Made by a program: the position numbers and the translations under genes. From Bacillota bacterium (GTDB lineage: Bacteria; Bacillota; SHA-98; UBA4971), in NCBI GenBank assembly GCA_030024085.1, contig JASEJE010000015.1:14375-78374 (forward strand): a DNA stretch of 64,000 nucleotides, written 5' to 3'. How positions within the stretch are numbered: position 1 is the stretch's first letter; the number at the start of each line of letters is the position of its first letter. Under the pieces are notes generated by a model. The model was not told the DNA's origin. It saw nothing but the letters and a program-made list of their open reading frames with translations, and did not search any database. This document shows, in pieces, positions 4,019 to 61,235 of this stretch.

Positions 4019-4293
4019 AATGACGTCACGAAAACCCGGGATCCGCCCGCTTGTTGTATGATTCTACTCCGGGTATCATAATCCTTCCAGCCCGGCGCAA
4101 AACGCGGACGCCGGGCGCATTCGGTCCGCAACCCGGCTGCTGGTCCCCACCTCGATCGGTCCCTGGCTCACTTGAGTATGGCACGTCGCACACACAACAG
4201 CAAGCTGCGCCTCGCCCTCAGCGAAACGCAGCCTGTCTTCGGACGATTTGTCGGCCTCAAGCCCCCGCAGCCGTGCTCAGGTCGGGGTGCGAC

Positions 4294-4504
4294 CCTAAGT
4301 AGATCGCCACGAATTCGCGCTACTTTTCAGCGCGCAAGTCCTGTCCGGGGTTGCCGGTACTGCCCTCCGGGGACGGCGCGTGCGGTGAGATGCGTTCGAA
4401 TTCGGCGCTCAAGGCTAGCCAAATTCCAGGCGCCCCGCCCTAGCAAGCACCGGCAACCCCAACACCGTCAGGAGAAGGGCGCAAACTCATGGCGCCATAC
4501 TTAG
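4294..4504 (-). repeat. Copy 1 of a structured intergenic repeat family (MITE-like) with TIRs CTAAGTAGATCGCCAC / TGGCGCCATACTTAG
   Basis: Near-identical to the segments at 10840-10984, 12109-12320 and 16348-16533. Contains an internal 13-bp inverted repeat GGGGTTGCCGGTA...CACCGGCAACCCC and a hairpin GAATTCGGC-n-GCCAAATTC. Its terminal CTTAG provides the TAA stop of ORF 4501..5019. Confidence 0.8.
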
Positions 4505-5019
4505 AAGTTCATCCCCACCAGCACGCGGAAAGAGCTTCCGCCATCTCCCGCGCTGCTGTAAAGCCCTTCGCCTGCGAGCCAGAACGGCGACATGATGTTG
4601 GCCTTGACGCCGCCGAGCAGTTCGAACCAGGAGTCGCTGCCGCTCATGAGAGCCACTCCGCCTCTGCCGTACACGTCGATCTGCGGGCTGACCGGCTGCT
4701 GACCGTACACGCCAATCTTGAAGATGTTGGCGTTGTATCCCTCGACCAGCTTCACTCCGCCGAACGCCCCCACTGAGGCGGCGCCGAAGCTCTGGAGAGC
4801 GAGTTTACCATACAGCTCGGTCTCGCTCGCGTTCTCGTGGCCGACGTAGTCGAACCCGAAAGCCACTTTATCAGAAAGGCTGAGTTCTCCGGTCAGCGTG
4901 AGGTGCGACTGATTCTCGTGGAAGTAGTACCCCACACCGATCTTGTTCTCTGCGGATGCGACCCCCGCCACTGCCAGCATCATAACGACGGCGACGGCCA
5001 GGCAAATTGCCTTCTTCAT
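4501..5019 (-). CDS. small secreted beta-barrel outer-membrane-like protein (signal peptide, C-terminal Phe)
   Basis: RBS AAGGAGGG 7 nt before the ATG. Signal peptide MKKAICLAVAVVMMLAVAGVASA. Gly/aromatic-rich alternating pattern. Ends ...VLVGMNF, an OMP-type C-terminal Phe. Confidence 0.5.
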   Translation of the reverse strand: MKKAICLAVAVVMMLAVAGVASAENKIGVGYYFHENQSHLTLTGELSLSDKVAFGFDYVGHENASETELYGKLALQSFGAASVGAFGGVKLVEGYNANIFKIGVYGQQPVSPQIDVYGRGGVALMSGSDSWFELLGGVKANIMSPFWLAGEGLYSSAGDGGSSFRVLVGMNF

Positions 5020-5109
5020 CGATATCCCTCCTTGCTTGAGTTGACTTCACGATATGATTCGACGGGAGGATCGAAACTCCTCCCCTGCCGGGGAAAACAT
5101 TCTCTGGAA

Positions 5110-6081
5110 TCAGACGAGGAACTCCCCGCGCACCACCTCCCACATCGCCGGATCCTCCGAGCCAAGCCGCCAGAAAGCTATCCCGTCGATGCCACGCCCT
5201 TTGACGAGCCTGAGTTTAAGCCTGAGGCTCTCGAGGTCCTCATAGTATATGACGTGCTCTGCGTCGCCGTCATAGTAGCGGATGACCGGACACGCCGCCC
5301 GCTCGTCCCATGCCGGCTGCAGGCCCGGTCTGGCAAGCACTTCCTTCGCCTTTTTCGGGTCCACTCCGCGCCCCTGCGACGCCACCCCTTTCTCGATGGT
5401 CCAGTGGCGGCCATAGAATGGAAGGCCCATCACGATCTTCTCCTTCGGGACACACGTGAGCGCGTAGTCGAGCACCTTCTCGAGCCACCAGAGAGGCGCG
5501 ACCGGTCCCGGCGGCCCTCCCGCCGGTGAATAGTCGTAGCCCATGATGATGAGGTGATCCACAAGCGGGGCAAGGCCGGGATAGTCGTATGCTTGGGCCC
5601 ATCCAGTATCGCCGGGAGCGGGGGGCGCGGTTTGCGCAACCACGTCCACGGAGAGGTGCTTGCCGTGGGGCTTGAGAAGGCGCGCGAGTTCTGCGATGAG
5701 CAGCGCGTACCTCTCCCTGTCTCCTTTCAGAAAGGCGCCCTCGAAGTCCATGTTGATCCCGTCGAAAGCGCGCTCCACGACTAGGGAGGCGATGTTTCCG
5801 GCCGCACGCCGCCTGGTGTCAGCGGTGCGGAGGATCTCGTGAGCGACCTCGGGGCTGAACTTCTCGTTCGCGATCAGAGGCACGAGCACGGTGCCCGACG
5901 ACCTCGCGAACCTTACGGTGTCTCCTTCCTCCTCGCTCTTGATGTCTCCGTTCGCATCCATTGAGTACCAGCAGGGACTGATGTGAGTTATCACATCAGC
6001 GTGTTCTCTGTACGACTGAACGCTGTCCGCAGCGTATGGAACCTGCCAGCCCAACACCAGCCTACCCGCGGATCCACCCAT
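5110..6081 (-). CDS. glycoside hydrolase family 18 protein (YaaH/YdhD-like spore peptidoglycan hydrolase type, no LysM)
   Basis: GH18 catalytic motif DGINMDFEG. RBS GGGGGAGG precedes the start. Confidence 0.7.
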   Translation of the reverse strand: MGGSAGRLVLGWQVPYAADSVQSYREHADVITHISPCWYSMDANGDIKSEEEGDTVRFARSSGTVLVPLIANEKFSPEVAHEILRTADTRRRAAGNIASLVVERAFDGINMDFEGAFLKGDRERYALLIAELARLLKPHGKHLSVDVVAQTAPPAPGDTGWAQAYDYPGLAPLVDHLIIMGYDYSPAGGPPGPVAPLWWLEKVLDYALTCVPKEKIVMGLPFYGRHWTIEKGVASQGRGVDPKKAKEVLARPGLQPAWDERAACPVIRYYDGDAEHVIYYEDLESLRLKLRLVKGRGIDGIAFWRLGSEDPAMWEVVRGEFLV

Positions 6082-6370
6082 CGGGAACCTCCCCCTCCCC
6101 CTTGTAGCGTAAGTCCGCCGCCAGCCGACCCCCTATACCACAAACGGGCGAAGTCGACGGACATTCCCATATTTCGAGATACAGACGACAAAACCTCCTG
6201 ACGTCCTGCAACGCCGCAGCACCGCGACCTTGCGACACTATCGCGACGCGGCATGGCGATGCACCATCGCGGCGCCCCCTCTCGACTTTACATCCCGCCA
6301 CGAGAGGCCTCTTCTCGCCTTTCCGTCCTGTCATCGGTCGCCCAGTATCGACAACATTCTTATGTATTGC

Positions 6371-6399
6371 TTGACAATTGTCTACTTATGCCGTACAAT
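6371..6399 (+). promoter_or_regulatory. consensus sigma-A-type promoter TTGACA-17-TACAAT
   Basis: TTGACA at 6371-6376, a 17-nt spacer, TACAAT at 6394-6399. It points toward the codY-like gene with a ~415-nt leader. Confidence 0.5.
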
Positions 6400-6814
6400 G
6401 TGTCCGGAAAGCTGGACAGTTCCTCCATTCATGGTTAACCAGGGGCGTCATTGCCATTCGCCAGGGGCATGCAGGTGCGTGATGCACCGCTGGGCAACGG
6501 CTCCGTTTTGCAGGTTCGTGTGGGTTATCTCAAAACGAGACGTGCACCCGAACCCTCCTGCAGCACATGATGGCCAGGGCGACGGCGACGTCGCCACGGC
6601 GGCGCGGGGAGGGCGACGCGGCCGGGGCAACGCCGCCGGGTGGGAGCGATTTCCGGTCCACCTCCGTGGGCACCTCGCGCAAAACCAGCCGCCTTCGCTG
6701 ATGCACGCCTCAAGGCGGCGTGGAAGCGACAAGGATGGATGACAGCGAGACGATGGTCATCCAGGCACCAACACCCAGAGCAGAAGCAAAGGAACGAAAG
6801 GAGGAGACGTTGAC

Positions 6815-7747
6815 ATGAAGTGCCGGCAGACGCTCAAAGCAATGGTGGAAATCCTCCGGGAGAGCCCTCCTCAGGCAGGAGGCGACGAAGTGTGCTCCGT
6901 GGTCAGTAGACTCCTTGGCGGCGCCCGCGTCTACTTTGTGGACAGCAGCGGGCGCATAGCAGGAGACTCCGCTGTGACAGCCGACCCCAATCACAGGCAA
7001 GAGCCAGTGGAGGGGATGGAACCAGAGGCCGGGGCCAAGGCAGAGGCAGAGGCGGGAACGGCGACGCGAACTGGAGCAAGGCGTGACGAGTGGCGGTCGG
7101 GAGACACCCTCGCGCCTCGCACCGTGGCCTCGCTCTGGGCCGCCGCGGCAGGCAGCCCTGGAGTCGCACAGCTCGCGCTCGACGGCGAGTGGTACGCGGT
7201 AGCCCCCGTGACGGTGCTGCAGCGAACCCTCGGCCTCGTGGTCGCCCGCCTGACGCGTGAGCCTTCGCGGGACGAGCTCGAGATGCTGGGCCCGATCGCT
7301 ACGGCCGCCGGGGCGGTGCTTGCCGTGGGGTACCAGAGCGAAGAAGACGAGCGTGAACGCAGCCAGCGTGCCGCGCGTTCCGCCATCCAGAGCCTCTCGT
7401 ATTCCGAGATCATAGCCGTCCGGGCCATCCTCGACTCCCTCGACGATGACCAGGGGTTCCTGGTGGCCAGCAGGATCGCCGACAACGCAGGCATGACGCG
7501 CTCGGTGGTGGTGAACGCTCTCCGGAAGCTATCCTCGGCCAATCTGGTCAGGACGAGATCCCTCGGGATGAAGGGCACTTTCGTGAAGCTGCTCAACCCT
7601 GAACTCCGGACAGAACTCGAGGACACCGGGCTCGGACGCGAGGCCCTGCCTGGGCAGAGGTCCACCGATGAGCCCGTTCCACGCGGCGCCGCGGCGGCTG
7701 CAAGAAAGGGCAATGCATCACTTTACCACGGCTCGATTCATGCATAA
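6815..7747 (+). CDS. codY: CodY-family GTP/BCAA-sensing transcriptional regulator (divergent N-terminal GAF-like domain with a low-complexity insertion)
   Basis: C-terminal wHTH ASRIADNAGMTRSVVVNALRKLSSANLVRTRSLGMKGTFVKLLN closely matches the CodY DNA-binding domain. RBS AAAGGAGG. Confidence 0.7.
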   Translation: MKCRQTLKAMVEILRESPPQAGGDEVCSVVSRLLGGARVYFVDSSGRIAGDSAVTADPNHRQEPVEGMEPEAGAKAEAEAGTATRTGARRDEWRSGDTLAPRTVASLWAAAAGSPGVAQLALDGEWYAVAPVTVLQRTLGLVVARLTREPSRDELEMLGPIATAAGAVLAVGYQSEEDERERSQRAARSAIQSLSYSEIIAVRAILDSLDDDQGFLVASRIADNAGMTRSVVVNALRKLSSANLVRTRSLGMKGTFVKLLNPELRTELEDTGLGREALPGQRSTDEPVPRGAAAAARKGNASLYHGSIHA

Positions 7748-7890
7748 CGATCACGCGCGCGTAGGAACATACATCATGAGCATGCCGGTGCCGGCTTCCC
7801 TCCCAGGGGCCGGTGCCGGCGATTGGCGCAAGGAGACCTGGAGCCACCCCGGACGCGGCCGCCGGGCTGGATGAAGGAGGCGCCGGAACG

Positions 7891-8079
7891 ATGGCGAAAG
7901 TGACAGTCGACGAGAACCTCTGCATCGGATGCGGCCTTTGCTCCGAGATATGTCCCGAGGTGTTCGAGATGGGAGACGACGGACAGGCGCACGCGTCTCA
8001 CCCCGAGGAATGCGACAGCCTCCCATGTTGCAAGGAGGCCGCGGAATCTTGCCCTGTGGAAGCCATCAAGATCGAGTGA
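7891..8079 (+). CDS. fdx: ferredoxin, single [4Fe-4S] type
   Basis: 62 aa. MAKVTVDENLCIGCGLCSEICPEVFEM...CPVEAIKIE. CxxCxxC...CP cluster motif. RBS GAAGGAGG 8 nt upstream. Confidence 0.8.
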   Translation: MAKVTVDENLCIGCGLCSEICPEVFEMGDDGQAHASHPEECDSLPCCKEAAESCPVEAIKIE

Positions 8080-8108
8080 CTCGAATACGAGGAGGTCGCC
8101 GGCGCGTC

Positions 8109-8348
8109 ATGAACGCTGATTCAGCAGGCTCCGGCTACGAGAGCACGCTCGTGCTCCATATCGAGGGAATGAGCTGCAATCACTGCCGCATAGCTGTGCA
8201 GCGGGCGCTCCTCCAGGTTCCCGGCGTGAGGACCGCGGAGGTGGACCTTGCATCCGGGACCGCCAAGGTGACGTTCGACCCGACAAGGGCGAACCGCCTG
8301 GAGATGGAGAAGGCCGTCGAGGGGGAGGGCTACCGCGTCTCATCCTGA
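8109..8348 (+). CDS. copZ: heavy-metal-associated (HMA) domain protein, copper chaperone CopZ-like
   Basis: 79 aa with the GMSCNHC (MxCxxC) metal-binding motif. RBS GAGGAGG. Confidence 0.75.
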   Translation: MNADSAGSGYESTLVLHIEGMSCNHCRIAVQRALLQVPGVRTAEVDLASGTAKVTFDPTRANRLEMEKAVEGEGYRVSS

Positions 8349-9391
8349 GGCCGGGGCAGATCGGCGACCACGGAAGGCGGGCCCCCGACCACGTGCACCG
8401 TCGCGCCGCAGGCCGGGCACTTGCCGGCTTTGACCTTGTACGCCACAAGGTCGAACCCGCTTCGCTCGATGAGGGGCTCCCCGCACGTACAGCAATGCGT
8501 GTCGTTGCCCTCGCCGCCGGGCACGTTTCCCATGTACACGTACTTAAGCATCTTGCGCGCGATCCCCACCGCCGTCCGCAGCGTGCTGACGGGCGTCGGC
8601 GGCGCGTCGAACCTGTAAGCCGGGAAATACCTGGAGAAATGCAGTGGCGTGTCGTCCCCCAGCGACGATGCGACCCACTGCACCAGCTTTCGTATCTCGT
8701 CCAGTGAGTCGTTGTGGCCGGGAATCACAAGGTTCGTGATCTCGACGTGGCATCCCGCCGCCTTCGACATCTCGGCCGTCCGCAGGACGGGCTCGAGCTT
8801 GCCATGGCATATCCTCGCGTAAAACGACTCCGTGAACGCCTTGACGTCGATGTTCATGGCGTCGATGTGTGGGAGGAGCTTCCTGAGGGGGTCCTCATTG
8901 ATTTCCCCGTTCGTGACGAGGACGTTTTTCAGCCCGCGCTCGTGCACCAGCTTCGCGGCATCCACCACGAACTCGTACCATATGAGCGGCTCGGAGTACG
9001 TATAGGCCACGCCAATCGACCGGCCGCGCCGGCCATACTCGGCCGCCGCCGCGGCGAGTTCCTCGGGTGTGATCCCCTGTGTCTCGGCATCCTCCTGGGA
9101 GATGTGCCAGTTCTGGCAGAATCCGCACGCGAGGTTGCAGCCCCTGGTGCCTACAGAAAGGATGTCCCACCCTGGATAGAAGTGATAGAGCGGCTTCTTC
9201 TCGATCGGGTCGAGGCCAAAGGACGTGACCTCACCGTAAATGAGGGAATACAGCCGGCCGTCTATGTTCTTTCTGGCCCTGCACACCCCCACCCGGCCAG
9301 GCCTTATCCTGCAGTACTGCGGACAGAGGAGGCACGTCACCACGCCCTCCTCCTGGTTCTCCTTCCGCCAGAATGACGCCTCTCGCATCAC
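8330..9391 (-). CDS. amrS: AmmeMemoRadiSam system radical SAM enzyme
   Basis: CNLACGFCQNW CxxxCxxC radical SAM motif. The N-terminal CPQYC Cys pair is typical of this family. Immediately downstream of the Memo/AMMECR1 gene with a 4-nt overlap. Confidence 0.8.
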   Translation of the reverse strand: MMREASFWRKENQEEGVVTCLLCPQYCRIRPGRVGVCRARKNIDGRLYSLIYGEVTSFGLDPIEKKPLYHFYPGWDILSVGTRGCNLACGFCQNWHISQEDAETQGITPEELAAAAAEYGRRGRSIGVAYTYSEPLIWYEFVVDAAKLVHERGLKNVLVTNGEINEDPLRKLLPHIDAMNIDVKAFTESFYARICHGKLEPVLRTAEMSKAAGCHVEITNLVIPGHNDSLDEIRKLVQWVASSLGDDTPLHFSRYFPAYRFDAPPTPVSTLRTAVGIARKMLKYVYMGNVPGGEGNDTHCCTCGEPLIERSGFDLVAYKVKAGKCPACGATVHVVGGPPSVVADLPRPQDETR

Positions 9392-10812
9392 GTGTACCTC
9401 TTGACCTGGAACCTGAAGAGCTCCACGTCCTCCTCCGGCGCTATACCGGCCTTGCGCTTTGCAATGGCCACCTGCTCGCGGGCGTCGTCGATCCCCTCGA
9501 GGTCCGGCAGCAGCAGGCCGCTCCTGGCGCCCCTCTTGACGATGACTCCATATACCTTCGGGTCCAGCTCAGCGATGCTGGAGATCTGCTCCGCCGGAGT
9601 CAGCACGTCAACAGAATACGTAAGGTCCTCGAGTTCATCGGGCTCCACAGGCACGAACCTGGGATCTTCGGTGGCGGCCGCGATGGCGTTCCTGATTATC
9701 TCCTCGGCGATGCTGTCTCGCGTGGGGTGAATCGTTCCAATGCATCCCCGGAGCTGCCCGGCTTTCTTGATGGAACAGAAGACCCCCGCACGCCCCCTCA
9801 TCTCTTCCGGCTGGTCCTCCGGGGGATCCACCACGCGACCGTTCCTCGTGTATTCCTCGACCGCCCTGCGCGCGAGACGCACAAGGGCGCTTTCCCCCTC
9901 TCTCGTCTTCAGCATCGCCTTCCGGCGCCTCGCAACCAGTCTCTCCAGGATGGCCCTCTCGCCCGCCCTCTCCCCGGGGCGGAACACCGCGACGGCGTAA
10001 CCCACGCCGAAGGGCCCCTCGTATGAGAGCACCTCGGGCTCGAACCTGCGCCCATCGAGGGTCCCGAGGGCCATGATGAGCGACCTGTATCCGCACTCGC
10101 CCGCGTGTTCCACCAGGCCGTTATCGAGCGCGAGGATCCCCTCCACGTCGCCCGCCCGCACCAGCTCGACTATCCGCGCGTCGAACTCGGCGCCGCGCGG
10201 GTCGTAACCGGACGGCGCGCCGCGAGTGAGCCGGTGCGACATGTCGCCGCTGGCGACGACGACAGCCCTCCGCCCCAGCGTCTCCACAGCCCTCGCTATC
10301 GCCGTGCCGAACATGTACAGCTTCTCGCGGGACAGGAACGCCATCCCCATGACGACCACAGGGACCGTGATCCCCGCCCCGACAACGAAGTGCATCGGGA
10401 CCAGGACCCCGTGGTCCAGTCGGCTGTCCACGTGATATGCACGCCGCTCGCGCTCATCGAGGAGGACCGCAGCCACGCCCATGGCGTCGGCCTGATGCGC
10501 GATCTCACGAGCGAGGGCAAGGTCGTTGTCGAATGAGTAGCCGACTTCGCCCGCCATGAAAAGGGAGAAATCGCCTGAAAGGGGATCGTCAGTGTGGATG
10601 GCGACGGCATCCTCGAAAAGAGGCGCATGGGGGCTGATGACGACCACGACCTCAGGACGGGCGTCCTTCACCATGGCCGCCAGCTTCTTCATGGCATCGG
10701 TCGTCTTGCGCACGGCGCCCAGGTCATGCCCGGCGCCGATCTCCGGGATGAGAAGCGGTGGGTGCGGCGCGAGGGCGCATAGCACCACGTCTCCGCTGCC
10801 TACCTTGCTCAT
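9388..10812 (-). CDS. AmmeMemoRadiSam system fusion protein: N-terminal MEMO1/LigB-like (AmrB) domain plus C-terminal AMMECR1 (AmrA) domain
   Basis: 474 aa. N-terminal dioxygenase-class-III/Memo-like region. C-terminal AMMECR1 motif GVFCSIKKAGQLRGCIG. RBS GGGGAGGGGG. Confidence 0.75.
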   Translation of the reverse strand: MSKVGSGDVVLCALAPHPPLLIPEIGAGHDLGAVRKTTDAMKKLAAMVKDARPEVVVVISPHAPLFEDAVAIHTDDPLSGDFSLFMAGEVGYSFDNDLALAREIAHQADAMGVAAVLLDERERRAYHVDSRLDHGVLVPMHFVVGAGITVPVVVMGMAFLSREKLYMFGTAIARAVETLGRRAVVVASGDMSHRLTRGAPSGYDPRGAEFDARIVELVRAGDVEGILALDNGLVEHAGECGYRSLIMALGTLDGRRFEPEVLSYEGPFGVGYAVAVFRPGERAGERAILERLVARRRKAMLKTREGESALVRLARRAVEEYTRNGRVVDPPEDQPEEMRGRAGVFCSIKKAGQLRGCIGTIHPTRDSIAEEIIRNAIAAATEDPRFVPVEPDELEDLTYSVDVLTPAEQISSIAELDPKVYGVIVKRGARSGLLLPDLEGIDDAREQVAIAKRKAGIAPEEDVELFRFQVKRYT

Positions 10813-10839
10813 GAGAATCCCCCTCCCCGGGCGCAGGCC

Positions 10840-10984
10840 CTAAGCAGATCGCCACAAATCCGCGCTACTTTTCAGCGCGCGAGTCCTGTCCAGCCACCCA
10901 GATTCTCGACGCCCCGCTCTAGCAAGCACCGGCAACCCCAACACCGTCAGGAAAAGTGGCGCAAACTTATGGCGCTATACTTAG
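10840..10984 (-). repeat. Copy 2 of the intergenic repeat family (shorter, internal ~70-nt deletion)
   Basis: TIR-like ends CTAAGCAGATCGCCAC / TGGCGCTATACTTAG. Shares the GCGCTACTTTTCAGCGCGC hairpin and the ...GCAAGCACCGGCAACCCCAACACCGTCAGG... core. Its CTTAG end supplies the TAA stop of ORF 10981..12072. It ends ~30 nt before the amr start codon. Confidence 0.8.
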
Positions 10985-12072
10985 CGTCCGGTAACGACCT
11001 TGTGGACGTACGGCGACGTCATGGCGGCGAGGAGACACCCATAACTCATGGTGAACCTGACCTCGTCTCCCACCCGTATCTCGCGGTCAGCGTCCTCCAC
11101 ATCCAGGATCAGGTGGTCGCTGGACGCCCCAAGCACGTCGATGCCCGACTCGAGCGGCTTGAGGCCCTCCGGGTCGATGTCCTGCCTTCCGCAAGCCAGG
11201 ATGGCCCTCCACCTGATGCCCTTGTCTCTGAACGTGCGCACCTTGCCGAAGGCGTCCTGCCCGATCTCTCCCCGCGGCACCGAAGGCTTCCTCGCCACTT
11301 CGATGGCCTGGGCCGCAAACACGAACGCGTCGAGATGCATGCCGGGAAGAGGCCGTCGGTACGTGACGTCACGGCCCAGGAGCATGGACTCGCCGATACG
11401 AAGCTGGTTTATGCCATGCGGCACCTCGCCGGCCCGGACGAGCGGAATAGAGCTGGAATTGCCGCCTGATATCACCTCGAGGTCAATTCCGAGGTCTCTT
11501 CGGATCCGATCCCGCAAGTGCAAGAGCACGCTCATGTTCTCGTGCGTCGGGATCACCCCGCCATAGCATGCTACGTTTGTCCCGATGCCATGCAGCCTGA
11601 TGCCCTCGACGCGCGCCAGGCGGCCCGCTACATCGGGGGCCGCATCGACCGGCACGCCCTCGCGGAGATCCCCCACGTCCACCATGAGGATGACCCTGTG
11701 CTGGACCCCCCGGGCACGCGCCGCCTCGCCAAGGGCTCTTGCAGTCTCCACCGACGAGATGAGGCTCATGTCGGCCACTCTCACGGCCTCGTCGGCCTCG
11801 CCAAGCATGGGGGCGCGCAAGAGAAGGGTCTCGCAGGAGATGCCGGCCTTACGCATGCGAGCCAGGTTCGCAAGGCGCGAGTCGGCAATCCACCTGACGC
11901 CGCCCCTCAGCATGGCTCTTGCCACCTCGGGGTCGCCGCAGGTCACCTTGGTGACCCCCGCCACCTCGGTGCCGCTCCTCCTGCACATCTCCACGACGAC
12001 CCTGGCGTTCTCCTCGATCTTGTCGAGAGATACCTCCACCCTGGGCGCTACCATGGAAGCTGGGACTGCCAC
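10981..12072 (-). CDS. alanine/ornithine racemase family PLP-dependent enzyme (fold type III)
   Basis: 363 aa with alanine-racemase N-terminal barrel features and a C-terminal beta domain. PLP-Lys context VAGVTKVTCGDP. Confidence 0.65.
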   Translation of the reverse strand: MAVPASMVAPRVEVSLDKIEENARVVVEMCRRSGTEVAGVTKVTCGDPEVARAMLRGGVRWIADSRLANLARMRKAGISCETLLLRAPMLGEADEAVRVADMSLISSVETARALGEAARARGVQHRVILMVDVGDLREGVPVDAAPDVAGRLARVEGIRLHGIGTNVACYGGVIPTHENMSVLLHLRDRIRRDLGIDLEVISGGNSSSIPLVRAGEVPHGINQLRIGESMLLGRDVTYRRPLPGMHLDAFVFAAQAIEVARKPSVPRGEIGQDAFGKVRTFRDKGIRWRAILACGRQDIDPEGLKPLESGIDVLGASSDHLILDVEDADREIRVGDEVRFTMSYGCLLAAMTSPYVHKVVTGR

Positions 12073-12108
12073 GTTCGCATCACCCTCGCCGTCCGGCCCC
12101 TCGCCCGT

Positions 12109-12320
12109 CTAAGTAGATCACCACAGATTCGCGCTATCTTTCAGCGCGCGGGTCCTCTTCAGGGTTGCCGGTGTTGCACGCCGGGGACGGCGCGCTTGCG
12201 GAGCGCCTCGTTAGAATTTGGCGCTTAAGGCTAGCCAAATTCTTGACGCCCCGTCGTGCAGGCACCGGCAACCCCAACACCGCCAGAAAAAGTGTCGCAA
12301 ATTCATGGCGCCATGCTTAG
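12109..12320 (-). repeat. Copy 3 of the intergenic repeat family (full length)
   Basis: CTAAGTAGATCACCAC ... TGGCGCCATGCTTAG. Internal IR GGGTTGCCGGTG / CACCGGCAACCCC. Hairpin GAATTTGGC-GCTTAAGGCTA-GCCAAATTC. Confidence 0.8.
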
Positions 12321-12369
12321 GTCGCCCGACCCGTGCAAGACCCATGTAAATGGATTTCTGAACCCACAC

Positions 12370-13110
12370 TCAGAAGCTCTTGACCTGCCGCCTGTAGTGC
12401 GACACCAGCCAGGCGTTCCTCTCGGCGCTGCCCGGCACGTTCGCGCTGGTGAAGACGGGCGGCTCCTGACCCGTGCCGGCAAGCCTTTCCACCGCCCGCA
12501 CGATGACGTTGTTCAAAATGTACGCGCCGAGTATGGTCGACACAGGGCCCGTCTTGAGGCCCGGGTAGCCGGGCACGTCCACGAGGGCATCCCCGGGAGG
12601 CGCGTGGTTGTCGAGCACGATGTCGGCGATCTCGTAAAGCCGGTATCCCGAGGGATGCCTTGGTCGCGCCGCGGCCGAGGCCTGGCGAGAGGTCAGGGCG
12701 ACGAGGACGAGGCTCCTGGCCCGTGCCTCCAGGGCTATCTCTATGGGCACAGGGTTGATTCCGGAGTTTGAAACGACGATGATGGGCTCGCCTGCGGAGG
12801 TCTCGTGATCGCCCATGATCGCGGCGGCATACCCCGGCAGCCGCTCCAGAATCGTGCTCCTCGCGGCCCCGTTGTGCACCATGAGTCCGGCGTCGAACAT
12901 GGCGTTCACCGGCACAAGGCCGCCTGCGCGATAGAATATCTCCTCCGCGAGCATGTGGGAGTGACCTGCGCCGAAGACGTGGAGCACGCCGCCTGCCGCT
13001 ACCGTCGTCGCGACGGCCTCGGCGGTTTTCTCGATGCCCTCCTGCTCGGCCGAGTCGATCTCATCCATGAGGCGCTTTATCGTGGTGGAATACTCGTCCC
13101 TCAGGCTCAC
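12370..13110 (-). CDS. SIS (sugar isomerase) domain protein, UPF0309-like
   Basis: 246 aa. SIS nucleotide-binding fold pattern (VLHVFGAGHSHMLAEE ... IIVVSNSGINP). Confidence 0.65.
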   Translation of the reverse strand: MSLRDEYSTTIKRLMDEIDSAEQEGIEKTAEAVATTVAAGGVLHVFGAGHSHMLAEEIFYRAGGLVPVNAMFDAGLMVHNGAARSTILERLPGYAAAIMGDHETSAGEPIIVVSNSGINPVPIEIALEARARSLVLVALTSRQASAAARPRHPSGYRLYEIADIVLDNHAPPGDALVDVPGYPGLKTGPVSTILGAYILNNVIVRAVERLAGTGQEPPVFTSANVPGSAERNAWLVSHYRRQVKSF

Positions 13111-13336
13111 ACTGCTCTCCCCCTATCTCGTCTCCTGCGAAGGGCCCTCCGTGGACCGGCCGCGTTCGTAAGCCCGCGCCCAGGGCCAGGAGGAGTGTCC
13201 CGGTCCCTACGGTATTCTACACAGGACGAGCATATCCTTTTCACGCCATTCATGTTCCCCGCGAAATCAGGGAACACCCTGTGGGATGGGTAGAAGGGCG
13301 GAACAGGGGCAGAGCATTCCAGGCGCAGGGGGACGG

Positions 13337-14716
13337 CTACTTTGCGAACCTCACCAGGTCGAAGTTGGGCTCAAGGGGCTCATCGAGGATGACGTGCCCC
13401 GCGATGGTCACGGCCGAGGCGCCTTCCACGAGGATCTGGACGCGCTCCACCTCGGGCAGCTCAGCCAGGGTGTTGACTATCGAGTAGACTGTGATCTCCT
13501 CGGCCCTGCTCCCTCCCCAGTGGCTCGACGCAAGCTCCCGGCTGAAATCCACGTAGGCCACTCCGTCTGCGATGCGAAGCGCCCTCAGCCGCGTTCCCTT
13601 CGGGATCGTGGGACACAGCACACTCCCGCCTGCGGGCCCCTTGAGAAGCTCGGCAACGATCTTCGAGGCCCGCTCCTCGGGCGAGGCGGCCTCCGCTATG
13701 CCCGCAGTCTTGCGTATCTCGGGCAGGAGGTCGTCGTCGAAGTTGGTGGGGCCGGCGAAGTAGAGTATGACCTCGTCATCGGCCGGGTTGAGGGCTGCGC
13801 GCACCTTCGACCTCAGCACTGATTCAGCCCCGTCATGGGGTGGCCCCTCGGTCCGCAAGTCTGACACGGGCTCCGCCCCCGCCCGCTGTCCCTCGGCGCC
13901 CCTGCGCCGCTTGTATGACTCCACGAGGTAGTTCACGGTGCCATGGAAGATCGCCTCGGCCACCCGCCTCCGATAGTCAGGCTGGGCAAGAAGCGACTCC
14001 TCTCGCGGGTTTGAAAGGAAACCCGCCTCCACGATGACTGCAGGCATCTTCGATTTCCTGAGCACGAAGTAGTCGTCGCCCGGCTTGGCCTTCCGCAGGT
14101 TCGGACCGAGGCGGGCCACGAGCTCCTTCTGGATGGCCTGCGCAAGGGCCTTGCTCTCCTCGGACTTGCTGTGATAGAACGTCTGCGCCCCCGACCAGAC
14201 AGGCTCGGGGAAGCTATTCGCGTGGACGCTGATGTAAAGGTCGGCCCCGCTCCGGGCGCCAAGGTCCACCCTGCTCTCCAGGTCCAGGCGCTTGCGCTGC
14301 ATGGGGCCGAGGGATCCGTCCCCGGCCAGGTCCTCGTCCTCGTCCCTTGTCATGACGGTGTACACCGCTACGCGGTTGAACAGGCCTGCAAGGTGGCGTC
14401 CGATGTCCAGCACCACATCTTTCTCGGCAAGCCCCGAGCGGCCGCGCGCTCCGCAATCGTCCCCGCCATGCCCCGGGTCTATGACTATGACCTTCCCGCA
14501 TACGGCGTCTGAAAGCGGGGCGCTCACCCTCACAGCGGCGCGGGCAAGCACGAGCAACATGACCACCACCGCCCCTATAGCAGCGGTGGTCACCAGCCAC
14601 GCTCTGGGCGTCCAGACAACCACCACGGGCCGTTTCAACAGGGCTTCACCCTCTGTGACGAGCATCCCGGCGCATGGCGCGCCGTCGCCCGCTGCCCGGC
14701 ACCCTGCACCCAACAC
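13337..14716 (-). CDS. N-acetylmuramoyl-L-alanine amidase (Amidase_3) with N-terminal TM anchor and C-terminal GerMN domains; true start probably internal (~14665)
   Basis: KVIVIDPGHGGDDCGARG...ISVHANS Amidase_3 motifs. C-terminal GerMN-like region. Confidence 0.7.
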   Translation of the reverse strand: MLGAGCRAAGDGAPCAGMLVTEGEALLKRPVVVVWTPRAWLVTTAAIGAVVVMLLVLARAAVRVSAPLSDAVCGKVIVIDPGHGGDDCGARGRSGLAEKDVVLDIGRHLAGLFNRVAVYTVMTRDEDEDLAGDGSLGPMQRKRLDLESRVDLGARSGADLYISVHANSFPEPVWSGAQTFYHSKSEESKALAQAIQKELVARLGPNLRKAKPGDDYFVLRKSKMPAVIVEAGFLSNPREESLLAQPDYRRRVAEAIFHGTVNYLVESYKRRRGAEGQRAGAEPVSDLRTEGPPHDGAESVLRSKVRAALNPADDEVILYFAGPTNFDDDLLPEIRKTAGIAEAASPEERASKIVAELLKGPAGGSVLCPTIPKGTRLRALRIADGVAYVDFSRELASSHWGGSRAEEITVYSIVNTLAELPEVERVQILVEGASAVTIAGHVILDEPLEPNFDLVRFAK

Positions 14717-14831
14717 AGCATGCGGCGCCCGGCACGCGGCTCTGACGCGCCCCGCTCGCTACCAGAGTTATGCATGCCCGCAGTGAAAAATGCCCTTCAC
14801 GAAGGCGCAAGAGCCGCGCCGGGCCTCTGCG

Positions 14832-15371
14832 CTACGGCCCGGCGCTCCCATGCGTGGCGTCGTGTCCAGCTATGCCTTCCATGACGCGATAGCCGCCCCC
14901 CTTCTCCACCTCACGCGCCGTCGGGAATACCTCGGCCAGCTTGCGAAGGAGGCTCTTCGCCCCCTGCTTCGTCTGGGCGACCAGGACCAGCCTCCCTCCG
15001 GGCTCGAGGTGCCTGGCGGCCTCCTCGATGAGTTCGAACAGGACTCGCTTGCCGGCCCGGATGGGCGGGTTGGACAGGACGAGGTCGAACCTCATGCCTT
15101 CCACCGGCCGAAACCCGGCGCCACATCGCACCTCCACATTGGTGACCCCGTTTTGCGCGGCGTTTCTCCGGGCAAGCTCACACGCCCGCTCGTTCACGTC
15201 CACCATGTATACCCGGCATGTCGGACACGCGAGGGCGGCGGCGATGCCGATGGGCCCGTAGCCGCAGCCGAGGTCGAGCACGACCGCGCCCTCGGAGACC
15301 TCCATAGCGCCTATGAGTAGCTGGGTTCCACGGTCCAGTTTACCCCTGGCGAAAACCCCAGCATCTGTCAC
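14832..15371 (-). CDS. class I SAM-dependent methyltransferase, small-domain (RsmC/RlmG-like)
   Basis: VLDLGCGYGPIG SAM-binding motif I and NPP motif (LSNPPI). Confidence 0.7.
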   Translation of the reverse strand: MTDAGVFARGKLDRGTQLLIGAMEVSEGAVVLDLGCGYGPIGIAAALACPTCRVYMVDVNERACELARRNAAQNGVTNVEVRCGAGFRPVEGMRFDLVLSNPPIRAGKRVLFELIEEAARHLEPGGRLVLVAQTKQGAKSLLRKLAEVFPTAREVEKGGGYRVMEGIAGHDATHGSAGP

Positions 15372-15403
15372 AAACCGTAAACGCCGTCTCTTGATGTCGA
15401 CGA

Positions 15404-16342
15404 CTATCTCCTTCTCGGCGCGGGGCGAGGTCGGCGTCTCCGTGAAGTAGTGCTCTCCCAGTATCGGAAGTCACCCCCCACGCCATGGCGCATGATTCGT
15501 GTGAGCACCGGCATCCGCGCCTTGAAGCGCGTCGCCGCAACGCGCGCCTTTACAGCGTCGATGAACTCCGGGTCAAACCCCATGGCGACAAGCTCCGGCT
15601 TCTTCTTTCTCTCATCGATCATCAGGCAGAGAAGCTTGTCCACATCATCGTAGCTGAAGCCGAGCTCCTCCTCGTCGGTCTGGCCTATCCACAGGTCTGC
15701 ACTCGGCGGCTTTGCAATGATCCCCGGCGGCACCCCGAGGTGGCGGGCAAGCGCCCGGACCTGCGTCTTATAGAGATCGCCTATCGGATCGAAGGCGAAC
15801 GCCAGGTCCCCGTGGAGCGTGCCGTAACCCAGGAGAAGCTCGGTCTTGTTGCTCGTCCCTGCCACAAGCCCCCGCTTCACTGCGGAGAGGTCATAGATGG
15901 CGGCCATCCTCTCACGGGCTATCCTGTTGCCGCGCCTGAGCCTGTCTGCGTCCGGCTCGGCCTCGGGTGGCAGCGCCGCAAAGTAAGCGTCGACCGGGCC
16001 CGTGATGTCCATGACGCAATGGTCGATTCCCAGGATGGTAGCAACCTCCCTTGCGTCGGCGAGGCTCGCAGGGTCCGACGTGCGGTAGGGAAGCATCGCA
16101 CCGAACACGTTCTCCGGGCCGAGTGCGCGGACGCACAGGTATGCGACGACTGAGGAGTCGAGTCCCCCGGATAGGTTGATGACCGCCTTTCTGTAGCCTG
16201 CGAGAGCTACCTGCACCCGCACGAACTCCACGAGGGCCGCCTGGACCTCCTCCAGGTCCAGCTCGAGCCCTGGCACCTTGATAGATTCGTACTGCACCGG
16301 TTTTCTAGAACCTCCCCATGCAAATGCCTCTGGTCTGGCCAA
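15404..16342 (-). CDS. nadE: NH3-dependent NAD+ synthetase
   Basis: PP-loop SGGLDSS. Full-length NadE-like architecture. Confidence 0.85.
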   Translation of the reverse strand: MARPEAFAWGGSRKPVQYESIKVPGLELDLEEVQAALVEFVRVQVALAGYRKAVINLSGGLDSSVVAYLCVRALGPENVFGAMLPYRTSDPASLADAREVATILGIDHCVMDITGPVDAYFAALPPEAEPDADRLRRGNRIARERMAAIYDLSAVKRGLVAGTSNKTELLLGYGTLHGDLAFAFDPIGDLYKTQVRALARHLGVPPGIIAKPPSADLWIGQTDEEELGFSYDDVDKLLCLMIDERKKKPELVAMGFDPEFIDAVKARVAATRFKARMPVLTRIMRHGVGGDFRYWESTTSRRRRPRPAPRRR

Positions 16343-16347
16343 GTGTG

Positions 16348-16533
16348 GGAACAGAGATCACCGCCGCTTTTCCAGGGGTTGCAGGTGTTGCACTCCGGGG
16401 ACGGCGCGTGCGGTGAGCCTCGTTCGAATTTGGCGCTTAAGGCTAGCCAAATTCCAGGCGCCCCGCCCTAGCAAGCACCGGCAACCCCAGCACCGTCAGG
16501 GAAGATGGCGCAAACTTATGGCGCCATACCTAG
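16348..16533 (-). repeat. Copy 4 of the intergenic repeat family (5' TIR degenerate)
   Basis: Shares GGGGTTGCAGGTGTTGCAC...GAATTTGGCGCTTAAGGCTAGCCAAATTC...CACCGGCAACCCCAGCACCGTCAGG...TGGCGCCATACCTAG with copies 1 and 3. The left end (AGAGATCACCGCCGCTTTTCCAG) is degenerate. Confidence 0.7.
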
Positions 16534-20223: not shown

Positions 20224-20396
20224 AGCCCACACCGGTTGCCGGAGGTTGCCGGTACCCGCACCATGTGGCCGCAGGATTTCGCCGCTTGCCTGCAGCCCGG
20301 ATTCCACGGAGGGAGAACGTCGGCGCCCCTGGACGCAGCACCCGCGACCCCGAGCGCGCCATGCCGGCGACGCGGACTCGTAAGCCCACTCCCCGC

Positions 20397-38989: not shown

Positions 38990-39177
38990 GTTTAGCATAC
39001 CTCCCAGTCATCGCCTGATCACGTTAGCAGACATACTCCGCCGGAATTCCCCTGCCACGCAGGCAACCTCCGGCATCATCGCTGCGAGAGGCAGGCCGGA
39101 CGCGGCCCGCCGGACACCCTGGCCGGCCTGGCCTGCCCCGCTTCTCCGCATCCCGGGCGGCCTGCCCGCTAAATGCA

Positions 39178-40383
<1,206 letters not shown>

Positions 40384-40427
40384 TCTCAAGTCATCCTCCT
40401 TGGCATAGGTCTTGACTCTACAACAAG

Positions 40428-56793: not shown

Positions 56794-56869
56794 TGGAGCC
56801 CACGGCCGGAATCGAACCGGCGACCCCATCCTTACCATGGATGTGCTCTGCCTGCTGAGCTACATGGGC
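56794..56869 (-). tRNA. tRNA-Thr (anticodon GGU), CCA encoded
   Basis: Manual cloverleaf: acceptor GCCCATG/CGTGGGC. Anticodon stem CATCC/GGATG. Loop AUGGUAA. T-arm GCCGG-TTCGATT-CCGGC. Confidence 0.85.
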
Positions 56870-56883
56870 TCCTAAACATGACC

Positions 56884-56960
56884 TGGAGCGGGAAACGGGA
56901 CTCGAACCCGCGACATTCAGCTTGGAAGGCTGACGCTCTAGCCAACTGAGCTATTCCCGC
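56884..56960 (-). tRNA. tRNA-Gly (anticodon UCC), CCA encoded
   Basis: Acceptor GCGGGAA/TTCCCGC. D-arm GCTC-AGTTGGCTA-GAGC. Anticodon stem TCAGC/GCTGA. Loop CUUCCAA. Confidence 0.85.
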
Positions 56961-56975
56961 TCGACGTAAAATGCC

Positions 56976-57061
56976 TGGTGGAGAGGGGTGGATTCGAACC
57001 ACCGAAGGCTGAGCCAACAGATTTACAGTCTGCCCCCTTTGACCAGCTCGGGAACCTCTCC
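56976..57061 (-). tRNA. tRNA-Tyr (anticodon GUA), class II long variable arm, CCA encoded
   Basis: Acceptor GGAGAGG/CCTCTCC. Anticodon stem GCAGA/TCTGT. Loop CUGUAAA. Variable arm TGGCTCAGCCTTCGG. Confidence 0.85.
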
Positions 57062-61160: not shown

Positions 61161-61235
61161 TGGAGCCGACGGTGGGACTCGAACCCACAACCTGCGGATT
61201 ACAAATCAGCTGCTCTACCGTTGAGCTACGTCGGC
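61161..61235 (-). tRNA. tRNA-Thr (anticodon UGU), CCA encoded; one U-C mismatch in the anticodon stem
   Basis: Acceptor GCCGACG/CGTCGGC. D-arm GCTC-AACGGTA-GAGC. Anticodon loop UUUGUAA. T-arm GTGGG-TTCGAGT-CCCAC. Stem GCTGA/TCCGC has a mismatch at position 29:41. Confidence 0.7.

Follow-up and report, generated by a model that had tools for sequence, protein, structure and literature searches.

In a 64,000-nt stretch of a Bacillota contig (JASEJE010000015.1; the whole stretch is called the window here), four similar intergenic segments had drawn an initial annotation with two explanations: a miniature inverted-repeat transposable element (MITE) of the Correia or ERIC kind, or a mobile structured RNA with alternative folds. 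Our question was which of the two describes these segments. The data make it very probable that the repeats are non-autonomous MITEs of ~210 bp, together with a propagated short form of ~145 bp, moved by a transposase of the IS630 family and targeted to CTAG. The evidence that carries this answer comes from relatives in which the same sites are empty, and from full-length transposons that share the ends of the repeat.

Copies of the repeat and their limits

A profile built from an alignment of the four segments was run with nhmmer over the whole window, and alignment and profile both bear out their homology. Copies 1 and 3 were matched with the E-values listed below, another copy with E = 4e-62, and the remaining one as two halves (E = 3e-29 and 5e-12); the two matches to copy 2 score 40.7 and 97.1 bits. 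With this profile no fifth full copy was found in the 64 kb. The sole extra match, at 20242-20353 on the minus strand, is weak (E = 0.03) and coincides with a possible fragment noticed earlier near 20230-20262. At best, an old insertion has decayed here to a relic; the ecfT-truA gap of L089-L091 holds a recognisable degenerate copy at the orthologous position (L-numbers are labels of the comparison loci and contigs).

4295-4504, plus strand: putative MITE, copy 1, full length, 210 nt from target C to target G (nhmmer E = 6e-72)
10840-10984, plus strand: putative MITE, copy 2, short form, 145 nt, ~68 nt lost internally (alignment and nhmmer)
12109-12320, plus strand: putative MITE, copy 3, full length, 212 nt, in the gap between the SIS-domain gene and the racemase-family gene (nhmmer E = 6e-70)
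16339-16533, plus strand: putative MITE, copy 4, 195 nt, with the variant left end CCAAGTGTGGGAACAGAGATC, in the gap between the enoyl-CoA hydratase gene and nadE (nhmmer and synteny)
20231-20373, no strand assigned: possible heavily decayed relic in the ecfT-truA gap, uncertain (nhmmer E = 0.03)

The limits first proposed were exact for copies 2 and 3, one nucleotide off at the left end of copy 1, and wrong for the left end of copy 4, which had been placed at ~16348. The terminal inverted repeats (TIRs) CTAAGTAGATCGCCAC and, as the reverse complement, CTAAGTATGGCGCCAT are present as described. So is a 13-bp inner inverted repeat, although it is perfect only in the consensus, and the internal deletion of copy 2, earlier put at ~70 nt, is close to that size. 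Across the family, copies measure 145-219 nt and have no coding capacity for a transposase.

Empty and filled sites

Five fully syntenic loci were found through orthologues of the racemase-family enzyme (97%, 82% and 79% protein identity). In L089 and L091 the gap between the enoyl-CoA hydratase gene and nadE is empty and reads ...GCGCAAA-CTAG-TCGTGATCC..., and in L090, from the same species and with an identical racemase protein, it is filled: ...GCGCAAAC-TA-[AGTG...ATACT, ~210-nt element]-TA-GTCGTGATCC.... The site of copy 1 is empty in L087 and L089 (...GATGAACTTC-TAG-GGTC...). There the CTAG contains the TAG that ends the gene for a 172-aa protein, and the junction C-TA-AG in the window turns this stop codon into TAA. 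Copy 3 is absent from L087, which reads GCGACC-AAG-ACGGGC where the window has GCGACC-TA[...]TA-GACGGGC; the empty site is one substitution away from CCTAGA. The change from CTAG to C-TA-[element]-TA-G is seen at two independent loci, and a third site is one mismatch off CTAG. Since filled sites read C-TA-[element]-TA-G where empty ones read CTAG, the element integrates into the TA of 5'-CTAG-3' and duplicates the TA. The two duplicates flanking copy 1 are at 4296-4297 and 4502-4503. Among 41 distinct full-length copies, 40 start at C and 40 stop at G, with random flanks, and no direct repeats of 3-9 bp were found at the insertion edges.

Copies 1 and 3 are lineage-specific insertions, both missing from the 97% relative L087. 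They are dispensable, since that relative has the same gene order with neither copy. L087 does have copies 2 and 4, which more distant relatives lack (copy 2 is missing from L088 and L089). The insertion in L090 is 89% identical to a bioreactor subfamily and 70% identical to copy 4 of the window; because it belongs to another subfamily, the CTAG next to nadE must have been targeted twice independently. The MITE explanation offered earlier is upheld by these junctions and by the termini, which match those of IS630-family insertion sequences (ISs).

Termini shared with IS630-type transposons

The absence of a transposase from the window, remarked on earlier, was confirmed by a similarity search with IS630 transposases. 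An IS with the same termini as the repeat was sought more widely, and IS630-type elements with such ends were found in other organisms, with none in the loci of the host clade that were compared. The terminal pattern occurs without the MITE body in 62 metagenome contigs; among the low-GC members of this set some are probably chance matches, and many are clearly repeated elements. In L172 (973-2120), two inverted copies of TAAGTAGGTCGCCAYAAGTT lie 1148 bp apart and are flanked by C-TA...TA-G, and L177 has a second inverted terminus pair, ~1160 bp apart. Both elements enclose open reading frames (ORFs) with HTH_32/HTH_29/HTH_33 and DDE_3 domains, and the joined product of L172 scores 189 bits against the NCBIfam model NF033545, 'IS630 family transposase' (cut-off 100). 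The same arrangement, with IS630-type coding sequence immediately within the shared terminus, is seen in ten further contigs. When the L172 transposase was used in a protein search, the named relatives were annotated as IS630 family, the nearest of them from Blastocatellia, and no Limnochordia entries were returned. The interior of the window element is unrelated to the interiors of these full-length ~1.15-kb elements. No solo termini of a parent IS were found in the clade loci.

Could the family belong to another class of mobile element, such as a MITE of the IS5 group (YTAR or TNA duplication), a PATE derived from IS200/IS605, or a REP/BIME moved by RAYT? Subterminal hairpins near both ends would fit such an origin, and IS5-group elements also favour CTAG-like targets. 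The filled sites, however, read C-TA-AG...CT-TA-G and not CTAG...CTAG, so that the duplication is 2 bp (TA) and not 3-4 bp. The repeats have true TIRs and a target duplication, both of which IS200/IS605 derivatives and REPs lack. Neighbouring copies occur in mixed orientation within single loci, and every transposase found adjoining this terminus is IS630-type. We consider an origin in one of these other classes most improbable.

Some details of the transposons with matching ends stand apart from the window repeat. At L172:996-2065 and L177:1581-2632 the reading frame of the HTH part differs from that of the DDE_3 part, which could reflect programmed frameshifting or decay. The terminus TAAGTAGGTCGCCAYAAGTT is also found with other interiors on unrelated contigs (L093, L094, L116, L165, L189, L192, L196, L197, L202, L208 and L111); one family with this terminus continues ...CTTTCGACTTTTCCCTTGCTACGAAGGGGCGTCCCCGCCCCG, and another is a 138-bp inverted pair at L128:8097-8234. 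This IS630 subgroup seems to have given rise to several MITE families. In a Limnochordia relative (L134:10725-10800; Ga0134104_1000008), the gap that separates an mcsA-like gene from ctsR contains TAAGTATGGCGCCACGAGTT, a terminus resembling the right end. As a lead to a parent IS it was discarded, having neither an adjoining transposase nor a recognisable MITE body, and it may be another degenerate insertion.

Architecture, subfamilies and fold

The three hairpins originally proposed are real complementarities, with 91.6% of cells paired over 38 copies, and the central hairpin GAATTTGGC/GCCAAATTC and the left hairpin are present in the aligned copies. On both strands the predicted fold of the whole element is a single long hairpin (-89.8 and -104.9 kcal/mol), more stable than shuffled sequences (z = -3.2 for the plus strand and -4.7 for the minus strand). 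Because either strand folds in this way, the element is one long imperfect palindrome, and its hairpin-rich appearance would stem from that.

Variation among copies follows subfamilies. The deletion junction of copy 2 recurs at a non-orthologous locus in the genome of MAG107 (L049:2826-2966), and since the junction is identical there, the short form itself has propagated. Left ends are of three types (AGTAGATCGCCAC, AGTATGTCGCCAA and AGTGTGGGTTCAG), all joined to the same core and right end. The left end of copy 4 is found again at L118, L119 and L087; this recurrence marks it as a subfamily variant and not as random decay.

The fold prompts one to ask if the segments are a strand-specific structured RNA module repeated by chance, for example a cis-acting regulatory leader or trailer, a riboswitch-like switch between alternative folds, or the gene for a small RNA. 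Besides the fold stability, two observations speak for such a module: all four copies in the window have one orientation relative to the genes, and the proposed stems show a slight surplus of compensatory cells. Covariation is weak. The RNAalifold covariation term is -1.39 kcal/mol, and double changes occur in nine pairs of the stems, where shuffles give 5.3 +/- 1.6 and reach nine in 19 of 500 cases, an excess due mainly to one pair. The common orientation between minus-strand genes, correctly described for the window, does not extend to the family: between co-directional genes, 11 copies are opposite and 7 in the same orientation, and copies also occupy convergent and divergent gaps. For the alternative helix CGGTGTTG/CAACACCG, covariation is no higher than in shuffles. 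Mismatches are 59 G-U and 74 A-C, a balance that favours neither strand. Rfam 15, searched in gathering mode with the whole window and in E-value mode with copy 3, returned nothing credible as a described family for the repeat.

Rates of change point the same way. Two orthologous pairs could be compared between the window and L087 (window 10840-10984 with L087:11089-11234, and window 16339-16533 with L087:5728-5933). These copies 2 and 4 differ by 13-15% mismatches, plus indels, where the four-fold degenerate sites of five flanking genes differ by 8.6%. As the copies diverge faster than four-fold sites, no purifying selection on the inserted copies is detectable, and the similarity among copies reflects recent spread and not conservation in place. 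The excess divergence could come from relaxed constraint, from GC or codon constraint at the four-fold sites, or from elevated mutation or conversion in palindromes. With the exact CTAG/TA junctions showing an origin by DNA transposition, a chance-repeated RNA module is very unlikely, and the alternative-fold reading of the initial annotation was not borne out. The family is an ordinary bacterial selfish repeat, not a new structured RNA.

Possible functions of inserted copies

A MITE can still be put to use where it lands. Individual copies might have been co-opted, with the hairpin in read-through mRNA stabilising it, being processed by RNase III, or terminating or insulating transcription between the genes of an operon, roles of a kind proposed for Correia, ERIC and REP elements. 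Whichever way a copy is transcribed, a stable hairpin would form, copies occupy gaps between co-directional genes at 0-50 nt past stop codons, internal core blocks are well conserved, and RNA-level effects are on record for other bacterial MITEs (PMC2229807). A scan for promoter-like or intrinsic-terminator-like consensus sequences inside the copies, however, found none. The shared copies 2 and 4 outpace four-fold degenerate sites, copies 1 and 3 are missing from a close relative with the same gene order, and recent spread accounts for the similarity between copies. Co-option of this kind is unlikely.

How firmly, then, do the repeats stand as MITEs moved by an IS630-family transposase? Several points weigh against that conclusion. 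The terminal 20 nt served as search pattern, so that the match to the transposons was partly imposed by it, and this match ends at ~20-22 nt. By tblastn, neither the window nor ~0.5 Mb of clade DNA, from genomes sampled in part, yielded an autonomous IS630-type element, and those full-length elements whose ends do match belong to other organisms. We infer transposition from presence/absence polymorphism. Core blocks such as CCGGGGACGGCG are better conserved across subfamilies than the left arm, in part through ascertainment, since core and ends served as search patterns. Double changes in the stems fall in 19 cells against 9.3 in shuffles, mostly in one pair and one subfamily; taken with the core blocks, this small excess makes some constraint on the palindromic core possible. 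Of the features of MITEs and of IS630 targeting that were tested, all were found save one, a cognate transposase in the same lineage, which the partial sampling did not yield.

Of all features, core conservation alone leaves room for a core with a function. The core CCGGGGACGGCG...GACGCCCCG...GCACCGGCAACCCC, kept across subfamilies with swapped left ends, would then be a functional module carried by the MITE, a proposal that we regard as quite unlikely. Such a module could serve to bind a host or transposase factor, or form a hairpin by which neighbouring transcripts are insulated or stabilised. Were it so, its spread to CTAG and TAG stops would rewire operon 3' ends in uncultured Limnochordia.

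Distribution and host lineage

The family has at least 118 non-overlapping matches, among them the 41 distinct full-length copies used above, spread over at least three genomes and numerous metagenome contigs. When species-representative genomes were scanned with a core 20-mer, the matches listed were mostly due to chance, in unrelated GC-rich genomes; real copies among the matches listed were on numerous contigs of 'Bacillota bacterium MAG107' (JBLNDE01) and also in 'Firmicutes bacterium UBA6811'. Another 79 matches, in 58 contigs, came from scanning metagenomes with the terminal 20-mer. Many of the metagenome matches came from JGI sample Ga0067045, including a contig with two matches that score exactly as those of copy 2 (40.7 and 97.1 bits), and others from bioreactor assemblies. 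No match was found in PLSDB plasmids by distant blastn. A literature search with the terminal sequences produced no name, and one for Limnochordia together with MITE nothing relevant. In agreement with the initial annotation, which recognised no named family, the repeat family is real and apparently unnamed.

RpoB of the window is 98% identical to that of a metagenome-assembled genome (MAG) labelled Bacteroidota and 76-77% identical to those of Limnochorda pilosa, Carboxydochorda and Geochorda, which places the host, by this protein, in an uncultured lineage of Limnochordia. The MAG in question is L087 (GCA_050260545.1, JBLNCJ010000085.1), labelled 'Bacteroidota bacterium'. It is fully syntenic with the window and its RpoB groups with Limnochordia, so that, judged from sequence, its source label or binning looks wrong.

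Exact matches to two proteins of the window were sought. The racemase-family ORF, as delimited here, had none, and the AMMECR1-fusion protein was matched only on a 1.7-kb Logan contig (L086; SRR9855028_187533) that ends in the repeat. Short contigs, this one and many from Ga0067045 among them, often start or stop within a copy of the MITE; evidently the family disrupts the assembly of these genomes from short reads.

Comparison with known small mobile elements

The closest parallel in kind is RUP of Streptococcus pneumoniae with its proposed driver IS630-Spn1. Like the window element, RUP is a small non-coding intergenic MITE of a Bacillota host, with IS630-like TIRs, insertion at TA with duplication of the TA, many copies, and mobilisation thought to occur in trans (PMC2229807). 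RUP measures 107 bp in a low-GC host, whereas the present element measures ~210 bp (145 bp in the short form) in a GC-rich host; the two are compared by description. The cognate IS of RUP resides in the same genome, whereas none was found in host-clade DNA for the window family, and the strict CTAG context seen here also sets the family apart from RUP.

IS630-family elements duplicate TA (PMC2170065), and a passage of the same paper, citing Tenzen 1990 and 1991, gives IS630 a preference for TA within CTAG. The window family shares both properties with IS630 of Shigella sonnei and the IS630/Tc1-mariner superfamily, and it shares short TIRs that start right after the TA. It differs from IS630 in having no transposase and in being five times shorter.

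Correia (NEMIS) elements of Neisseria resemble the family in their TA termini and TA duplication, whole-element stem-loop, intergenic position near genes, and long and short forms set apart by an internal deletion (PMC2229807). They belong to an unrelated proteobacterial host, and no relationship in sequence is known; Correia copies carry an IHF site as well as promoter elements, and they yield processed transcripts. The likeness is one of form. ERIC (IRU) elements of enterobacteria, ~127 bp long, are likewise imperfect palindromes with TA termini in transcribed intergenic regions (PMC2229807). Most ERIC copies are old and were inherited from common ancestors, whereas the lineage- or strain-specific insertions of the window family indicate recent mobility.

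Target choice and the ends of genes

In the mechanism that we propose, a DDE transposase of the IS630/Tc1-mariner family would mobilise the element in trans, by cut-and-paste. It would recognise the ~20-nt inverted termini (TA)AGTAGATCGCCAC... and (TA)AGTATGGCGCCAT..., and the driver IS would itself carry the ends TA-AGTAGATCGCCAC... and ...ATGGCGCCATACT-TA. Integration takes place at the TA of CTAG, with duplication of the TA. Where the target is a TAG stop codon, the junction C-TA-AG rebuilds a TAA stop and the insertion would be tolerated; with CTAG surviving mostly in intergenic DNA and over TAG stops, copies would pile up just 3' of genes.

CTAG is in fact scarce in the window, with 32 occurrences where base composition predicts 216, a depletion of ~7-fold. 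Of these sites, 21 lie outside the bodies of coding sequences, and 7 of the 32 are within the MITE copies themselves. TA is also depleted (1323 against 2222 expected). Across the family, a stop codon falls inside the terminal C-TAA-G at 15 of ~41 gene 3' ends that face an element. Two upstream genes in the window have such stops: the TAA of the 172-aa gene at 4501-5019 (4501-4503, minus strand) is made by the end of copy 1, and that of the racemase-family gene (10981-10983, minus strand) falls within the end of copy 2. The position of copies 0-50 nt past stop codons can be ascribed to the scarcity of CTAG, to the regeneration of stops and, presumably, to selection against insertions inside genes. 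No host function of the element is required, and none is indicated.

These results add to Limnochordia, a diderm, GC-rich class of Bacillota known almost solely through metagenomes, a well-documented MITE family with an exact target, a target duplication, subfamilies and evidence of recent activity. They also expose hazards for annotation: the family fragments assemblies, supplies the stop codons of neighbouring genes and can pass for a structured RNA. In stop regeneration at CTAG/TAG, target choice and oligonucleotide depletion jointly restrict a transposon to the ends of genes. No new mechanism is opened; the family is mechanistically ordinary and of use in annotating Limnochordia MAGs.

Neighbouring genes and other features of the window

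The genes next to the copies are as first listed. They encode alanine dehydrogenase, the 172-aa protein, which has no Pfam match, an AMMECR1-LigB fusion and a radical-SAM protein, an enzyme of the alanine/ornithine-racemase family, a SIS-domain protein, NAD synthase and enoyl-CoA hydratase. A terminator-like hairpin of 16 pairs with a T-rich tail after it (4201-4235, minus strand) lies, in the direction of transcription, about 60 nt downstream of copy 1. Probably the 172-aa gene had this hairpin as its native terminator and was split from it by the insertion of copy 1.

Elsewhere in the window, positions 39011-39087 on the minus strand match the Rfam S10-Clostridia ribosomal-protein leader with 35.8 bits (threshold 35.1), just downstream of an EF-Tu-sized ORF at 39178-40389 on the same strand, which fits a Bacillota origin. 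There are four tRNA genes on the minus strand, three in a tight cluster at 56797-57061 and one apart at 61164-61235.

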